DNA of 15,244 bases, taken from a virus (Duplodnaviria; Heunggongvirae; Uroviricota; Caudoviricetes). The notes beneath the pieces were generated by a model. It did no database searches and was not told the DNA's origin. It saw nothing but the letters and a program-made list of their open reading frames with translations. The translations under genes were made by a program, and so were the position numbers. Positions 251-15,244 of this stretch are shown here, piece after piece. The stretch lies in the IMG/VR virus record IMGVR_UViG_2695420523_000022, one strand, 5' to 3'. Every line of letters starts with the position of its first letter. The first letter of the stretch is position 1.

Positions 251-280
251 AAACAACGTGGAACAAATAGACACAAGAAA
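251..280 (+). promoter_or_regulatory. Array of 10-bp-phased GAACAA-like pentamers (aAACAAcgtg gAACAAatag acACAAgaaa); candidate binding array
   Basis: The same 15-mer AACAACGTGGAACAA occurs at 7754-7768; unit and cgtg spacer also match the array at 13931-13980 on the other strand. Confidence 0.45.
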
Positions 281-495
281 TATACAGGCGGATCATCTTT
301 CCAGGGGGAAGCGCACCAATTCATGAGGGGCGTTAATGTCGATATGGGGATCCCCACCTACCGGAATTTTTTTCCGGTTAAACGTTAATCAGGCTGGTGG
401 GCTTTACCTGTTCGGTAGGTGTTATGATTATCGTAATACCTTTCCCCCAATGGGGTAAAAGCATCAACCGTAACGAAAGTCGTTATGGTTGCCAC

Positions 496-7752: not shown

Positions 7753-7782
7753 GAACAACGTGGAACAACCACGAACAAATAA
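7753..7782 (+). promoter_or_regulatory. Three GAACAA pentamers at exact 10-bp phasing (gAACAAcgtg gAACAAccac gAACAAataa), about 215 bp upstream of the capsid start
   Basis: Direct reading; shares the 15-mer AACAACGTGGAACAA with 252-266 and the unit with 13931-13980. Confidence 0.5.
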
Positions 7783-7790
7783 TTTACAAA

Positions 7791-7819
7791 AAATGACAAA
7801 AAGCCGGATTGCTCCGGCT
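7791..7819 (-). terminator. Rho-independent terminator after the 74-aa ORF
   Basis: Minus strand: GCCGGAGCAATCCGGC followed by TTTTTGTCATTTTTT, 11 nt after the stop at 7830. Confidence 0.75.
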
Positions 7820-8178: not shown

Positions 8179-8451
8179 TTAGCTGTCTGGGTAATTACGC
8201 CATATTTCATCGCTTACACCATCTATACCCATTTCAGCATAAGTGCGATCTACTGCCTTTCTCAGGTCTCCGAAGTTATCCGGCGGCTCCGGTGGCTTCT
8301 GTGCCTTCCTGGAACATTCCAGCCGTCGCATCGTAACCTGATGCCGTTCCTTGTCTGTCTCCACCAGCAGCATGACTTCACCCCATCGCGCCGCCGCCCT
8401 CCGGTAAAAGCCTTTCGCCTCGAGTTCTTCCGCTATGCGGTCATGTACCAT
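8179..8451 (-). CDS. PerC-family-like small transcriptional regulator (90 aa); family assignment tentative
   Basis: ATG at 8451 with SD GAGGGGG at 5-nt spacing; motif AEELEAKGFYRRAAARWGEVM resembles the PerC/Pch motif as I recall it; the track ORF from 8571 lacks a credible start. Confidence 0.45.
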   Translation of the reverse strand: MVHDRIAEELEAKGFYRRAAARWGEVMLLVETDKERHQVTMRRLECSRKAQKPPEPPDNFGDLRKAVDRTYAEMGIDGVSDEIWRNYPDS

Positions 8452-8461
8452 CGCCACCCCC

Positions 8462-8872
8462 TCAGAACGGAATACCGTCACCGTAAGGGTCATCGCCTCC
8501 CGCTGGTGGCTGATTACCCTGTGTGCCTGTGGTTTTGCGTCTGTTCCCGCCAGGACGTGCCGCACGGACACTGATTACGCTGTCTGCAATAACCTGATAA
8601 CCCTGCCGCGTTTCCCCGTTCTGTCCGGTCCACTGGCTGACCTGCATCGTGCCGGATACGCTGGCAACGTCGCCTTTTTGATGTTTAGCCAGGAAGTCGG
8701 CCTGCTTACCAAATGCGATGACCGATAGCCATAACGTCGCCTGCCCATCCTGCGCCTGACTACATGGCAACGATACCGCCATACGCGCCAGCGTCATCGG
8801 TGTGCCCTTACTGGTCTGTTTTACCTGCGGGTCGTCCACCAGCCGCCCGTAAGCCGCTATCTGTGCTGTCAT
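8462..8872 (-). CDS. ssb: Single-stranded DNA-binding protein (136 aa)
   Basis: OB-fold-like N-terminus, Gly/Gln-rich linker and acidic C-terminal tail ending DDPYGDGIPF, the canonical SSB tail type; ATG overlaps the upstream stop. Confidence 0.75.
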   Translation of the reverse strand: MTAQIAAYGRLVDDPQVKQTSKGTPMTLARMAVSLPCSQAQDGQATLWLSVIAFGKQADFLAKHQKGDVASVSGTMQVSQWTGQNGETRQGYQVIADSVISVRAARPGGNRRKTTGTQGNQPPAGGDDPYGDGIPF

Positions 8873-9120: not shown

Positions 9121-9131
9121 TTCTCGCAACC

Positions 9132-9323
9132 TCTCACTTTTTCGCCTCACTTTTTCAAGCGTCTCACTTCGTCGCAGTTGGGATTTTCGGTTTTTCTATG
9201 TGTGTGTTTCATAAGTATTTTTTTACCCCTCACTTTTGAGGATGTATACAGGTCGAAAAGTGAGGGAGAGCGGGCTAATTTTGGCCCTCTTTCTATCCCC
9301 CTCGCTTTTGCTCCTCACTTTTA
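9132..9323. repeat. Iteron-type replication origin: at least 5 direct copies and 1 inverted copy of CCTCACTTTT around an AT-rich tract
   Basis: CTCACTT at 9133, 9146, 9163, 9229, 9314; inverted copy AAAAGTGAGG at 9257-9266; degenerate CTCGCTT at 9301; AT-rich 9181-9228; lies directly 3' of the replication gene. Confidence 0.65.
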
Positions 9324-12053: not shown

Positions 12054-12273
12054 GTACCCCTCCGCATTTTTTTTCGTTAGAAATAAGCGTTCTTCTTTCC
12101 TGTTCATCGCTCAGGAATACGCAGACCTCACCGCTAAGGCGTTTAAGTAAGCCGATGATTGCCCCTGATTCGCTGTCGGTCATCATGCCAGGGTAATCCT
12201 CTGCCAGTGCGCAAATAACTTCGATTTGGTGGGCGCGTTCTGCTGCCTGTTGTAGTGTGATTTCCTGGCTCAT
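12043..12273 (-). CDS. Hypothetical protein (76 aa)
   Basis: ATG at 12273 overlapping the upstream stop (ATGA); SD AGGGGG 8 nt upstream. Confidence 0.45.
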   Translation of the reverse strand: MSQEITLQQAAERAHQIEVICALAEDYPGMMTDSESGAIIGLLKRLSGEVCVFLSDEQERRTLISNEKKCGGVHVQ

Positions 12274-12470
12274 AAGCCTACCCCCTGACGAATACGGGCA
12301 GCAAATACCATCACGCAGCCAGCCGGAGATTGCTGGCGTGCTTCCTGTTCGCTGGTGGCCTCAATGGTAATCACGCGCGGTTGTGCCGTGCTCAGGGCGA
12401 TAAAACGCCAGATGTATTTATTCAGGTTGTGCGAGTCCCGCCCTTGCGGGTGTATGGTATAATTTCTCAT
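12270..12470 (-). CDS. Small protein (66 aa), first gene of the leftward operon; possibly Icd-like (P4-type host cell division inhibitor family), tentative
   Basis: ATG at 12470 with SD GAGG at 5-nt spacing; MRNYTIHPQGRD...IWRFIALSTAQPRVITIEATSEQEARQQSPAGCVMVFAARIRQG resembles Icd-like satellite proteins as I recall them. Confidence 0.4.
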   Translation of the reverse strand: MRNYTIHPQGRDSHNLNKYIWRFIALSTAQPRVITIEATSEQEARQQSPAGCVMVFAARIRQGVGL

Positions 12471-12567
12471 AGCTGCCTCGATACTGTTGCTATCGTTGGT
12501 GGTTAGACGCCCTGCATGTGTTGCGAGCACTGCGGGGCGTTGCTTAATTTGAGTAACAAAACTCAAA

Positions 12568-12648
12568 CTGTGCGCACAGATTAAAATCATGTGTGCGCAC
12601 ATGTCAATACTTAACATCTCATTTTTTTTACTGTATTGTGTGCGCCCA
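12568..12648. promoter_or_regulatory. Divergent promoter region with three TGTGCGCACA-type operators (12569-12578, 12592-12601, imperfect 12639-12648)
   Basis: Leftward promoter: -35 TTGACA (revcomp of 12602-12607), 16-nt spacer, -10 TTTAAT (revcomp of 12580-12585); one operator fills the spacer, one sits at the predicted start site. Rightward promoter: -35 TTAACA 12611-12616, -10 TATTGT 12634-12639, overlapped by the third operator. Confidence 0.6.
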
Positions 12649-12675
12649 TAAAGTCCATTTAAGTGAGGTGCATCA

Positions 12676-12873
12676 ATGTCTAGCGGTAACAAAAACAACA
12701 AATCAGCAAAGAAAAATATTCGATTCCCACATGAGCTTATAGATGGGATTGATGCCAGCGTTGAACAAGAAAAATTAACTAATCCTAGTGCTAATTTTTC
12801 CGCATGGGTCTTAGATGCCTGTGGACGCAAATTAAAATATGAACAGCGCCGGAAGGCCAAAGAATCAGAATAA
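12676..12873 (+). CDS. YlcI/YnfO-family (DUF3950) small protein, likely ribbon-helix-helix DNA binder (65 aa); candidate island repressor
   Basis: NIRFPHELIDGIDASV...NFSAWVLDACGRKL matches the YlcI pattern (NIRFP...NFSAWVIEACRRRL) as I recall it; SD GTGAGGTG 6 nt upstream; divergent from the operator-bearing promoter. Confidence 0.65.
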   Translation: MSSGNKNNKSAKKNIRFPHELIDGIDASVEQEKLTNPSANFSAWVLDACGRKLKYEQRRKAKESE

Positions 12874-12930
12874 TCACTATCAGCGCCGTGGTGTGAGGAA
12901 CTACGGCGCATTTCTTTACAGGAGTAGACA

Positions 12931-13116
12931 ATGAACAACGAAGAATTACGGGAAATCGCATTATCCATACTTGAAAGACAGGTAGAAAAAAAATTAAGAG
13001 AAATGGATGAAATGCCTGACCATGAACAGGAAGCAAGGCCAAAAAGATTTGCCCTTGAGGATTTTCTTAAAAATTGCCCAAGAAAGATGAGATCGTGGCG
13101 TTGTTGTCCGCCCTGA
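12931..13116 (+). CDS. Hypothetical protein (61 aa) downstream of the ylcI-like gene
   Basis: ATG at 12931 with strong SD AGGAG at 6-nt spacing; MNNEELREIALSILERQVEKKLREMDE... Confidence 0.5.
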   Translation: MNNEELREIALSILERQVEKKLREMDEMPDHEQEARPKRFALEDFLKNCPRKMRSWRCCPP

Positions 13117-13288
13117 TGACAGATTTGCCAACCAGCCAAAAATGTGGCATCGTTGTCGATGCATAGTGTAATCAACATGTATATCATATTTTTGCCTGTA
13201 ATCCGGCAATTGTGGCGCTTCTTCACACAGTTGATATAATTCCAATGCTCATATTTATTTTTTGTGCAGCAGGTTAATCGTTCACAAA

Positions 13289-13318
13289 GGCGCTCAGGTA
13301 ACTGGGCGCTTTTTGTTA
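13289..13318 (+). terminator. Rho-independent terminator between the convergent alpA and ylcI-like transcripts (probably bidirectional)
   Basis: GGCGCTCAG-GTAA-CTGGGCGCT (9-bp stem with two G-U pairs) followed by TTTTTGTT; CCTTTGTG on the other strand. Confidence 0.6.
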
Positions 13319-13463
13319 TGCCTGAAAAACCCCAATTTTGTTGTTTTTCAGTTTCACCAGGGCGAACGAATCCCCGCCCACGTTCTGGCGTATATTCAAT
13401 CTTCATGGTTATAGCTCTGTGTTCAGATGATTGATGTGTGGCGGCTGCGTGCCGCCAGCGTGA

Positions 13464-13652
13464 TTAATGAACTGCCTTGCAGCTATCCTTCCAGGCCAGA
13501 ACCTCGGATAAAGACCAGCCAACGGAACGACCGCCAAGTTTACGACGTGATGGGAATTGTCCGGCCTTTTCCAGGCGGTAGCGGCATGAGCGGCTAAGGC
13601 CTGTTAGCTTTTCGCATTCTTTTTCACGTATAAACCGATCAGTGCTTAACAC
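13464..13652 (-). CDS. alpA: AlpA-family phage regulatory protein / excisionase-like wHTH (62 aa)
   Basis: LTGLSRSCRYRLEKAGQFPSRRKLGGRSVGWSLSEVLAW is the AlpA signature; GTG start at 13652 with SD AAGGGGG at 5-nt spacing. Confidence 0.8.
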   Translation of the reverse strand: MLSTDRFIREKECEKLTGLSRSCRYRLEKAGQFPSRRKLGGRSVGWSLSEVLAWKDSCKAVH

Positions 13653-13930
13653 TATTGCCCCCTTTCGTTTCTTAAAGAGTTATTTCGTGTTCTATTGCGT
13701 TGGGATGTGTCTGATTGTGTCAGGATGATTCAGAGTTGGCAAATGTTGAGGCCGCATGGTTTACAGAAAGAGGAATAATCAGGATAAAATCATTTAAATT
13801 CATGTTAATACAAAGGCATAAAATATTGTTTCATGCCTTTTTTCTCGCTATTTAAAGAGTGATTCGCTAGTGTATAAAAAACCAGTAACACATTAAAAAT
13901 CAGCTACTTATAAATCTGTACACTTTTTCG

Positions 13931-13980
13931 CCTCTTGTTCGTAGTTGTTCCGCATTGTTGCTCATTGTTGCACGTTGTAT
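13931..13980 (-). promoter_or_regulatory. Five tandem 10-bp units each containing TTGTT (GAACAA on the minus strand) between int and alpA
   Basis: cctcTTGTTC gtagTTGTTC cgcaTTGTTG ctcaTTGTTG cacgTTGTAT; same unit and cgtg spacer as the arrays at 251-280 and 7753-7782. Confidence 0.55.
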
Positions 13981-13993
13981 CTGTTCGCATATC

Positions 13994-14009
13994 CAGTATG
14001 CGCATACTG
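13994..14009. promoter_or_regulatory. 16-bp perfect palindrome CAGTATGCGCATACTG, 18 bp beyond the int stop; candidate protein-binding site
   Basis: Exact dyad symmetry; no flanking U-tract on the int strand, so not a canonical terminator. Confidence 0.4.
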
Positions 14010-14026
14010 AAAAAATACGAAAAAAA

Positions 14027-15244
14027 TTATTTTCTTCTGGCTACTGGTAGCGTGGTTACGTTTTCATGTGTTCCCGCCAGTATCCCTAACCGCTCCATCC
14101 ACATATCCAGCACATTGCGTTTAGCATCCAGATAACGGGAATGATTATAAACTCGCTGCATTCCTGGCATCTGGTGGCCTGTAAGCTGCTCCACGACATG
14201 CGGATCAACGCCTAAATCGTTCAGCATGGTTGTAAAGGTGCGCCGGATGTCATGCAGTGACCAGTGAGGATGATTAAGCCTCCTGTGCGCTAATCTTCCA
14301 TACTGCGATACGCTGGCCTCCTGTTTCACTTCCCCCAGCAATAAGCCCGTGTGCCTGTTCTGCTCCACCAGCTGCGTGACGAACGGCAGGATCGCTTCCG
14401 GTATGGGCCGGAATATTGCGACCTTCGTTTTGCTGTGCTCCTTCGGAACGGTCCATAGCATTTCCGTAAAATCCCACTCCCCGATCTCCGATAGCCTCAG
14501 TTCTACCGTCCTGGCTCCGAAGACAATCAGGAGGCGGATTAACGCGACGTAGTAAGGGGAAAATATTTTTTTGTCCAGTGCCTGCAATAATTCGCCAAGT
14601 TCTTTGTTACTTAAGACACGTTCGCTTATATCCGGTTTTTTCCCAACGTCCGCCACGTTCAGATCGTCCAGAACGTTGCTGATTGCATAGCGCCGCCTAC
14701 GGCAGAACTTAAGCGCCTGTTTGCACGCCTGTAGCACGAATCCGGCAGTAACAGGCGTTCGCTTTGCCACCAGGTCAAAACAGGCCAGCCAGTGCCGTAG
14801 CTCGCATTTATCCAGCGGCATAGCACCAATCTGCTGTATTACGTGATTATTAAGTCGCCTTTTCAGGGCGATATAATCCACGCGGTTTTCCTTTACGTAA
14901 TACTCAAGCCAATAGGTGAGCGCATCGCCAACCGTTACGGGCTTTAACGCTTCCTGTACGGTGTAATTCATCTCATGACGTGGATTTTTCCCCTCAGCCA
15001 GCCATGTGCGACACTGTGCGGCTTTTTCCCTGGCTGCTTTCAGGCTCAGATCAGGATAACTTCCCAGCTTAATGCGTTCGGGTCGTGTCTCCCTTCCCGT
15101 TCCGGCCCTGTATGTGAAATACCAGGTCAATTTCCCTGATGTTAAATATTTCACGCTCAGGTTTCCGCCATCACTATAAAACGTGTTTTTCTCCGCTGGC
15201 TTACCATGAAGTTTCCTTAGCAAGGTATCGCTCAGTTTGTTCAT
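14027..15244 (-). CDS. int: Tyrosine integrase, P4-type with N-terminal arm-binding domain (405 aa)
   Basis: N-terminus ...FYSDGGNLSVKYLTSGKLTWYFTYR...IKLGSYPDLSLKAAREKA matches the P4-like integrase N-domain; C-terminal HDIRRT...H..Y catalytic region; ATG sits exactly at the window edge, so the true start and promoter are unseen. Confidence 0.85.
   Translation of the reverse strand: MNKLSDTLLRKLHGKPAEKNTFYSDGGNLSVKYLTSGKLTWYFTYRAGTGRETRPERIKLGSYPDLSLKAAREKAAQCRTWLAEGKNPRHEMNYTVQEALKPVTVGDALTYWLEYYVKENRVDYIALKRRLNNHVIQQIGAMPLDKCELRHWLACFDLVAKRTPVTAGFVLQACKQALKFCRRRRYAISNVLDDLNVADVGKKPDISERVLSNKELGELLQALDKKIFSPYYVALIRLLIVFGARTVELRLSEIGEWDFTEMLWTVPKEHSKTKVAIFRPIPEAILPFVTQLVEQNRHTGLLLGEVKQEASVSQYGRLAHRRLNHPHWSLHDIRRTFTTMLNDLGVDPHVVEQLTGHQMPGMQRVYNHSRYLDAKRNVLDMWMERLGILAGTHENVTTLPVARRK

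Follow-up and report, generated by a model that had tools for sequence, protein, structure and literature searches.

The closest described counterparts of the locus studied here are the alpA promoter regions (PalpA) of the phage-inducible chromosomal islands (PICIs) EcCICFT073, EcCIEDL933 and EcCIMP1, which occupy the same place, between co-oriented int and alpA genes. In EcCICFT073, AlpA activates a lacZ fusion to the alpA promoter region, induction needs alpA, and a fusion downstream of alpA is induced by lambda and phi80 as helpers, whereas mitomycin C has no such effect in non-lysogens (PMC6092414). Overexpression of alpA suffices for runaway excision and replication (PMC6092414). The alpA gene of EcCIMP1 behaves in the same manner (PMC11773190), and alpA is likewise needed in EcCIEDL933, whose reported helpers are HK106 and HK446 (cf-PICI preprint). 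In 2018 the helper factor that switches on alpA was "under study" (PMC6092414); our literature search found no later identification of this factor, no description of an AlpA operator and no sub-fragment mapping of the sites in PalpA. Here we analysed the non-coding int-alpA spacer (374 bp, positions 13653-14026) of a 15,244-nt viral DNA (IMG/VR record IMGVR_UViG_2695420523_000022; this whole stretch is called the window), which by its gene content is a capsid-forming PICI (cf-PICI) of the EcCIEDL933 type.

The satellite phage P4 provides a second point of comparison. Its PLL-vis region resembles the spacer in carrying a 10-bp phased direct-repeat array upstream of vis/alpA, and the AlpA of the window is 47% identical to Vis, which is annotated as an excisionase and regulator. 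P4 Vis is reported to repress PLL. PICI AlpA, in contrast, is an activator (PMC6092414). The two systems also differ in the repeat motif (CTTTAA in P4, ACAA(C/T) here), in the helpers, which here are lambdoid phages without a detectable AlpA/Cox homologue, and in the position of the origin: the P4 region doubles as an origin, whereas origin-like iterons lie beside rep in the window. P4 is turned on when Cox, a recombination directionality factor (RDF) of its helper P2, binds cox-boxes (PMC3936717), which in P4 are the three 10-bp repeats of the array. Sites of this kind, bound by 186 Apl (PMC7498355) and P2 Cox (PMC3936717), are direct repeats one helical turn apart, found both at att and in a promoter region. 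The AlpA of Pseudomonas aeruginosa shares the name and is also a positive regulator at a promoter followed by a terminator, but it is a Q-like processive antiterminator with eight helices, a 21Q-like fold and DNA contacts at residues 128-142, whereas the protein encoded here is a 62-aa Phage_AlpA winged helix. Because the two proteins are unrelated, no function can be transferred from one to the other, and we rejected Q-type antitermination, with binding between -35 and -10, as a model.

Results

The spacer corresponds to a tested alpA promoter region

E. coli genomes, IMG/VR contigs and a single Shigella genome together yielded 51 distinct spacers, namely 36 of the clade to which the window belongs (EcCIEDL933 type, with an internal identity of 84-100%; hereafter the palindrome clade) and 15 of its sister clade, the EcCICFT073 type. 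Their GC content was 31-39%. The tested PalpA fragment was placed by mapping the published EcCICFT073 primers (supplementary table) onto these spacers. All five cloning primers matched L007/L008/L020-type loci of the sister clade exactly, and the PalpA-lacZ fragment contained the entire spacer, with 33 nt of the int end on one side and alpA up to +58 on the other. The window spacer was 67-70% identical to the L007-type spacers and had the same block order of array, IHF-like core, conserved block, hairpin, TTGCCA promoter and ACTCTTTAA box. It differed from EcCICFT073 in having five array units instead of six, a different hairpin loop, and 11-12 additional bp, which together with changes next to them make up a palindrome.

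Since the spacer is homologous to the tested EcCICFT073 fragment, its role as a helper-responsive promoter and control region for alpA is supported, and a region of this kind is not new. For the homologous spacer the literature has shown promoter activity, activation by AlpA of its own promoter, induction by helpers and independence of SOS, all of which would extend to this one by homology. The original prediction, made from the letters of the window, had proposed that alpA is driven by a promoter inside a 374-bp spacer. The bounds were correct, given by the int stop codon (14029-14027) and the alpA GTG start (13652), both on the minus strand, and the promoter agrees with the activity of the homologous fragment and with a TTGCCA-17-(C/A)ACAAT pair in 51/51 spacers. 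The same prediction saw the spacer as the control point through which a helper signal turns on alpA; this holds for the spacer, by virtue of the tested homologous fragment, but not for the palindrome as an operator, which is missing in the EcCICFT073-type clade. SOS induction, suggested there as a possible trigger, is contradicted by published SOS-independent induction of alpA (PMC6092414, PMC11773190).

A phased ACAA array is shared with both att arms and the capsid-module upstream region

The five-unit phased repeat that had been noticed earlier was confirmed as five ACAA units at exact 10-bp steps, running from 13978 to 13935 on the minus strand. Tandem Repeats Finder (TRF) also returned a period of 10, and phased ACAA runs of more than three units appeared in 0/500 shuffles. 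Across the spacers the ACAA cores were invariant, while the bases between them varied. In 50/50 related contigs the array had the same orientation and was separated by 296-349 bp from alpA, on the upstream side of the gene.

The 8-mer ACAACGTG occurred four times in the element, always inside a 10-bp phased ACAA array, as the first unit in three arrays and as the second unit in the array of the int-side arm. Each att arm (left and int-side) has one sister array, and a third is found upstream of the capsid module (Table 1). In both att arms the array directly followed two Int arm-type repeats, GACTACACC (213-221 and 225-233 in the left arm), or AACTACACC where the integrase was of the roxA type; the int-side arm array was present in related contigs whenever the contig extended that far. 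The capsid-module array was conserved in other cf-PICI contigs (L109, L117, L137), is adjoined by a terminator-like hairpin AGCCGGAGCAATCCGGCT with a T run (7796-7815, minus strand), and may mark an AlpA-controlled late promoter. No such array was found in 17 unrelated viral contigs (~160 kb).

Three properties of RDF-bound arrays were found together: at least three direct repeats at helical-turn spacing, copies in the att arms beside Int arm-type sites, and a cognate RDF encoded in the element. AlpA was the only recognisable RDF-type protein among 20 open reading frames (ORFs) scanned. It also matched PDB 8C3T ("AlpA family phage regulatory protein"; E = 2.6e-6), for which the literature search found no describing paper. 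Relatives carry 10-bp arrays of other motifs at the corresponding place, namely CTTTAA x3 upstream of vis in P4 and GTCAGGA x4 in L157, and P4 attP showed no clear phased CTTTAA array. Because the same arrays in att arms and regulatory regions are the signature of excisionase-type binding sites, we infer that AlpA uses the spacer array as its operator, which would account for the published autoactivation; the same array code would serve excision and probably also late-gene control. The arrangement is like that of 186 Apl, P2 Cox and lambda Xis, with helical-turn direct repeats at att and in the promoter region. It differs in that Apl and Cox act as repressors where they bind at promoters and AlpA is a reported activator, in that the array lies more than 200 bp from the best promoter, and in that binding by AlpA is a prediction.

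Conserved putative promoter, IHF-like core and hairpin

A sigma-70 pair, P1, had the top promoter score in all seven lineages scanned, with a predicted start near 13707. Its -35 region TTTGCCA was invariant, and its -10 was a TG-extended CACAAT in 34 spacers and AACAAT in 17, with 6% invariant columns in the 17-bp stretch between them. P1 overlaps a proximal run of 10-bp units, of which whole units have been gained or lost between lineages; where a 10-bp indel has occurred the pair is still intact, as the following unit provides a -10 that is equivalent. The leader that follows showed no significant structure (z only -0.2 to -1.6). A structured leader hiding the Shine-Dalgarno sequence was rejected, as the CUCUUU/AAAGGG pairing appeared in some folds only and was not kept in all lineages. 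Boxes 1 and 2 were the only two ACTCTTTAA (ACTCTTWAA) copies in the window, and box 2 was nearly invariant. On the plus strand they read TTAAAGAGT, which shares the TTAAAG core of the P4/P2 cox-box TTAAA(G/C)NC(A/C).

IHF recognises the core consensus WATCAANNNNTTR with an A/T-rich flank. Compared with it, the IHF-like core of the window had one mismatch at position 6, and that of the EcCICFT073-type clade was perfect; its fixed positions were kept at the same aligned place in 50/51 spacers, with the N4 varying freely. The left att arm also contains a perfect IHF-type core on the minus strand (155-167).

The hairpin AGGCAT-N13-ATGCCT described in the original prediction proved to be real, with its position shifted by one base (13814-13838, not 13813-13837). 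As sense RNA it had a folding energy of -12.9 kcal/mol (z = -3.9). Over 14 sequence variants, the nine core pairs gave 108 Watson-Crick pairs, 14 G·U pairs and 4 mismatches as sense RNA, compared with 108, 2 and 16 as antisense RNA. Several independent transitions were therefore tolerated only on the sense strand, which indicates that the hairpin acts in int/alpA-sense RNA. The stem was AU-rich and 9-12 bp long, the loop was CAAUA, GUAAAA or ACAGAA, and an invariant A6 precedes the hairpin, equal to a T6 on the plus strand (13838-13843). An intrinsic-terminator scan of the window did not call the hairpin. Judged by its conservation pattern, it is a conserved RNA hairpin with terminator features rather than a DNA element of the operator kind. 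In the simplest interpretation it would end int transcripts, and antisense ones, as a bidirectional terminator or insulator. The terminator that had been assigned to alpA itself stood in part: a GC-rich hairpin (13438-13457; -16.3 kcal/mol, z = -3.25) directly follows the alpA stop, but it has no U tract and is not a canonical intrinsic terminator.

Distal and antisense promoter-like pairs

The longest well-conserved stretch of the spacer was 13847-13905, and the AT-rich block within it may be an activator-dependent distal promoter. We considered it unlikely, although worth attention, that alpA is transcribed mainly from this TTTAAT-17-TACAYT pair (start ~13862), with P1 minor or constitutive. 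Relative to that start, the array would occupy -72 to -120, and the hairpin, at ~+20 to +50, would be a leader attenuator, a geometry like that of P4 PLL with its upstream 10-bp boxes and consistent with the distance from those boxes to PLL. Conservation of the stretch, the presence of the -10 TACAYT in every spacer together with a poor -35, as in activator-dependent promoters, and the G·U pattern that places the function of the hairpin in sense RNA all speak for it. However, the IHF-like core abuts the putative -35, the score was 7.9 compared with 10.6 for P1, and a terminator in the leader would oppose activation unless relieved.

On the opposite strand, a TTTACA-19-TAAAAT pair overlies a motif that is invariant on the minus strand. 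The pair could drive a ~50-nt plus-strand RNA ending at the T6, or be an activator site at about -58 of P1. If the former, the hairpin with the T6 would terminate an antisense RNA (start ~13797) that acts as a regulator against int read-through or transcripts from the distal promoter. The TTTACA was invariant, with TAAAA(T/A) at 18-19 bp in 51/51 spacers, the plus-strand T6 was invariant where the sense tail varied, and P4-type satellites use small immunity RNAs (PMC10111431). We nevertheless gave this possibility a low probability: the hairpin had 16 mismatches as antisense RNA and 4 as sense RNA, a 19-bp spacing is long for a sigma-70 promoter, no Rfam family was matched (best E-value 0.32), and the RNA would not overlap a P1-derived alpA mRNA.

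The palindrome is specific to one clade

The spacer does contain the 16-bp perfect palindrome (8+8) on which the original prediction had placed weight (CAGTATGCGCATACTG, 13994-14009). Markov shuffles of window size held ~0.25 palindromes of this size on average, at least one in 22% of shuffles, and the window has a second, longer one, GAGTTGCAGATCTGCAACTC (20 bp, 590-609), which is non-coding and lies downstream of the terminase gene. The 16-bp palindrome is therefore not significant by itself. Near the 20-bp palindrome there are also 12-bp palindromes at 133-144, 165-176, 345-356 and 502-513.

The palindrome was perfect in 33/36 distinct spacers of its own clade. In the other three the symmetry was broken by a single uncompensated substitution (G to A in L014 and L023, T to C in L053). 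It was absent from 15/15 EcCICFT073-type spacers, which have a sixth ACAAC unit in its place and lack 11-12 bp. Dyad symmetry, which an operator would be expected to retain among relatives that share regulation, was not kept across the 51 spacers. The extended hairpin around the palindrome is not followed by a U tract.

It is improbable that a dimeric regulator, of helper or host, uses the palindrome as its operator and through it relays the helper signal that switches on alpA. Its perfect symmetry within a non-coding regulatory spacer and its retention in most of the clade are compatible with such a role, and it is among the few features specific to a clade, the two clades being reported with different helpers (HK106/HK446 and lambda/phi80). 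Retention in a clade of 84-100% identity, however, says little, the palindrome lies ~290 bp upstream of P1, right after the int stop, and palindromes of this size are not rare by chance. It is unlikely to be an operator because it is missing from the clade in which inducibility was shown and carries uncompensated substitutions. Its distribution did not follow that of the TGTGCGCACA operators found elsewhere in the element, and we rejected it as an extra site of the regulator binding the three TGTGCGCACA palindromes (12568-12648), since those were found only in this element type whereas the palindrome occurs with many other downstream modules. The palindrome appears to be a lineage-specific feature of doubtful function, outside the conserved machinery.

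Other readings and null searches

In a lambda-type nut site, boxA has the sequence GCUCUUUA and precedes a short GC stem whose pentaloop is GNRA-like. The hairpin and the boxA-like ACUCUUUAA box ~11 nt upstream of it could in principle form a nut-like RNA site, at which a helper antiterminator or other RNA-binding early protein would load on polymerase coming from int or the distal promoter and let it read through the hairpin into alpA; this reading seems very unlikely. If it were true, the helper would be sensed by transcription antitermination rather than promoter activation, and clade-specific differences in the hairpin would set helper specificity. A lambda-type nut site was rejected: ACUCUUUAA in box 1 varies (ACGCGTTAA in L055), the stem is AU-rich with 9-12 bp, and the loops are CAAUA, GUAAAA or ACAGAA.

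A replication origin or purely recombinational scaffold, in which the arrays flank an AT-rich core and have no transcriptional role, is scarcely credible. In its favour, three 10-bp repeats form part of the annotated P4 origin, which immediately precedes vis, and the spacer is AT-rich (31-39% GC) with repeat runs on both sides of its centre. Against it, PICI origins map beside rep (PMC6092414, PMC10111431), the element has separate CCTCACTT iterons beside rep (9129-9322), on account of which the spacer was rejected as an origin, the ACAA arrays in the att arms and upstream of the capsid module fit a regulator or excision factor and not Rep, and the homologous fragment has shown promoter activity (PMC6092414).

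Several known sites were sought in the spacer and rejected. The LexA (SOS) box is CTGT-N8-ACAG; the closest sequence, TACTGGTTTTTTATACAC, was CTGG-N8-ACAC or ACAT in all lineages, and published alpA induction is SOS-independent. The lambda CII motif, TTGC-N6-TTGC, was present on the plus strand only and in one clade only. No known RNA family (Rfam) matched the window at its gathering score, and 0.32 was the E-value of the best sub-threshold hit in the spacer. Mimicry of helper-phage DNA was also rejected, as blastn of the spacer against 50,697 phage records gave only chance matches of at most 44 nt, and tblastn found no AlpA homologue in lambdoid phages. The plus-strand ORFs 13715-13855 and 13935-14135 were rejected as coding, because their frames are broken by 1, 2, 5, 10 and 11-bp indels among relatives.

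Table 1. Features of the int-alpA spacer, its flanking genes and the sister ACAA arrays (window coordinates unless a contig is named)
Feature	Position	Strand	Description
int	14027-15244	-	Arm-DNA-bind_3 and Phage_integrase domains
int stop codon TAA	14027-14029	-	Upstream boundary of the spacer
Extended sense-strand RNA hairpin around the palindrome	13985-14020	-	-11.7 kcal/mol, z = -3.3; not conserved outside the palindrome clade
Perfect 16-bp palindrome (8+8), CAGTATGCGCATACTG	13994-14009		Specific to one clade
Phased array, ACAA(C/T) x5 with an exact 10-bp period, first unit in ACAACGTG	13935-13978	-	Proposed AlpA (RDF-type) operator
IHF-like core AATCAGCTACTTA	13898-13910	+	Matches WATCA(A/G)NNNNTTR
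Most conserved AT-rich block with weak pair TTTAAT-17-TACACT	13869-13897	-	-10 TACAYT kept in all spacers
Box 1, AATCACTCTTTAA	13852-13864	-	~11 nt upstream of the hairpin; ACTCTTWAA copy
Conserved hairpin, core GGCATGAAA / TTTTATGCC	13812-13840	-	12-nt arms; proposed bidirectional terminator or insulator
Antisense promoter-like pair TTTACA-19-TAAAAT	13761-13790	+	Minus-strand invariant motif TTCTGTAAA (13769-13761) on the same bases
P1, core alpA promoter	13714-13742	-	-35 TTGCCA 13742-13737; 17-bp spacer; TG 13722-13721; -10 CACAAT 13719-13714
Proximal run of five 10-bp units, ACAC/ACAC/ACGC/ACAC/ACTC	13671-13720	-	Overlaps the P1 -10 and fills the ~55-nt leader
Box 2, AATAACTCTTTAA	13672-13684	-	In the leader, just upstream of the Shine-Dalgarno; 180 bp downstream of box 1
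Shine-Dalgarno AAGGGGG (13664-13658) and alpA GTG start (13652-13650)	13650-13664	-	
alpA	13464-13652	-	62 aa; GTG start; Pfam Phage_AlpA E = 5e-18; 47% identity to P4 Vis
Sister ACAA array, left att arm, 3 units (AACAACGTGGAACAA...)	253-283	+	20 nt after two Int arm-type repeats GACTACACC (213-233)
Sister ACAA array upstream of the capsid module, 3 units (AACAACGTGGAACAACCACGAACAA)	7755-7785	+	In the gap upstream of the capsid gene
Sister ACAA array, int-side att arm, 4 units	L001 4914-4953		Just outside the window

Genomic context of the element

The int, alpA, RepA-type helicase, capsid, portal and large terminase (TerL) genes all lie on the minus strand of the window, and from this gene set we assigned it to the capsid-forming PICIs, as an EcCIEDL933-type element inserted in tqsA. 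A 100% identical copy was found inside tqsA of E. coli DETEC-S792; the RefSeq annotation of this genome agrees with the spacer bounds and has no features inside the spacer. Related spacers were present in 877/5,426 complete E. coli genomes, none of which had annotated spacer features. The first 137 bases of the window belong to the 5' part of tqsA; the att core TGCTGTTAT occupies 129-137, and a second copy of it lies beyond int. The right att arm region that was examined (L001 4858-5034) lies just past the right end of the window. The EcCIEDL933-type element of O157:H7 has the same layout and adjoins roxA.

At least five CCTCACTT(TT) iterons, ~17-85 bp apart, occur where the RepA-type helicase gene ends (3' end) and a short way beyond it (9129-9322) and are the probable replication origin. 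Between the replication and capsid modules there are overlapping ORFs for a PerC-family activator (8179-8571) and an SSB (8462-8872). Three TGTGCGCACA-type palindromes (12568-12579, 12590-12603 and ~12638), found among the elements compared in this element type only, lie between the plus-strand DUF3950 (YlcI/YnfO-family) gene (12676-12873) and a minus-strand Icd-like operon, and this region (12560-12650) looks like a divergent operator region. A 378-aa ORF at 12270-13406 does not represent a gene, and the sole RefSeq coding sequence there is Icd-like (12270-12617). A Bro/AntA-type gene seems to have left a remnant downstream of alpA (13117-13463), because an intact 266-aa antA/antB gene occupies that place in L011.

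A scan of genome contigs for more distant relatives of the spacer returned 3 loci only. In satellites whose AlpA is 63-70% identical (L151, L152, L155, L156), a 257-302-aa ORF without a Pfam match fills the int-alpA interval. In L157 the interval is still a long spacer, which contains a canonical terminator for int and a GTCAGGA array phased at 10 bp.

Discussion

The spacer is, on balance, probably the cis-regulatory region of alpA, which would encode the master activator and excision factor of this cf-PICI. Read from int to alpA, it would consist of the ACAACGTG-headed array, an IHF-like site, the AT-rich block, the hairpin, the core promoter and a leader of ~55 nt. In the proposed mechanism, the core sigma-70 promoter TTGCCA-17-TGnCACAAT (P1, ~13707) would give little alpA transcript until a helper acts, and the hairpin would stop int and antisense transcripts, so that constitutive int expression is kept from leaking into alpA. 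A trans-acting factor of the helper phage would then raise alpA transcription from the spacer. AlpA, a small winged-helix protein of the excisionase class, would bind the five-unit array cooperatively, one repeat per helical turn, and its polymerisation on the array would lead to positive feedback and excision. The IHF-like site could bend the DNA and bring the array towards the promoter region, with the AT-rich block serving as a weak and possibly activator-dependent promoter. AlpA would also occupy the identical arrays in both att arms, for excision, and the one upstream of the capsid module.

Several points weigh against this mechanism. From the array down to the predicted P1 start there are ~230-270 bp, too great a distance for activation by simple contact, and therefore a bend, a loop or the distal promoter must be assumed. 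Promoter-like matches in the AT-rich spacer were no commoner than in shuffles (2 compared with 2.4 expected), so it is conservation that makes the case for P1. The sense tail of the hairpin, TTTGTATT, is weak, with 6/8 T here and 2-4 T in some lineages, whereas the antisense T6 is invariant. The spacers compared are kin, so that the counts do not represent independent events. Several small ORFs without an assignable function could encode the binder of the array instead of alpA. The identities of the sites, AlpA as the array binder, IHF binding, the terminator role and the start site are all predictions from sequence, and the analysis of the spacer did not locate the entry point of the helper.

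As a whole, the spacer is by homology an ordinary member of an already characterised class, and the palindrome is its least conserved feature. The new result is a testable, though unproven, map of sites, above all the ACAA array code that is common to the alpA region, both att arms and the region upstream of the capsid module. The map further offers an IHF-like core, a sense-strand hairpin and a fully conserved core promoter, and it shows which pieces of 10-50 bp to mutate, the palindrome being the least promising of them. The sites so mapped concern AlpA, the master switch of Gram-negative phage-inducible islands, including the capsid-forming ones that move between species.

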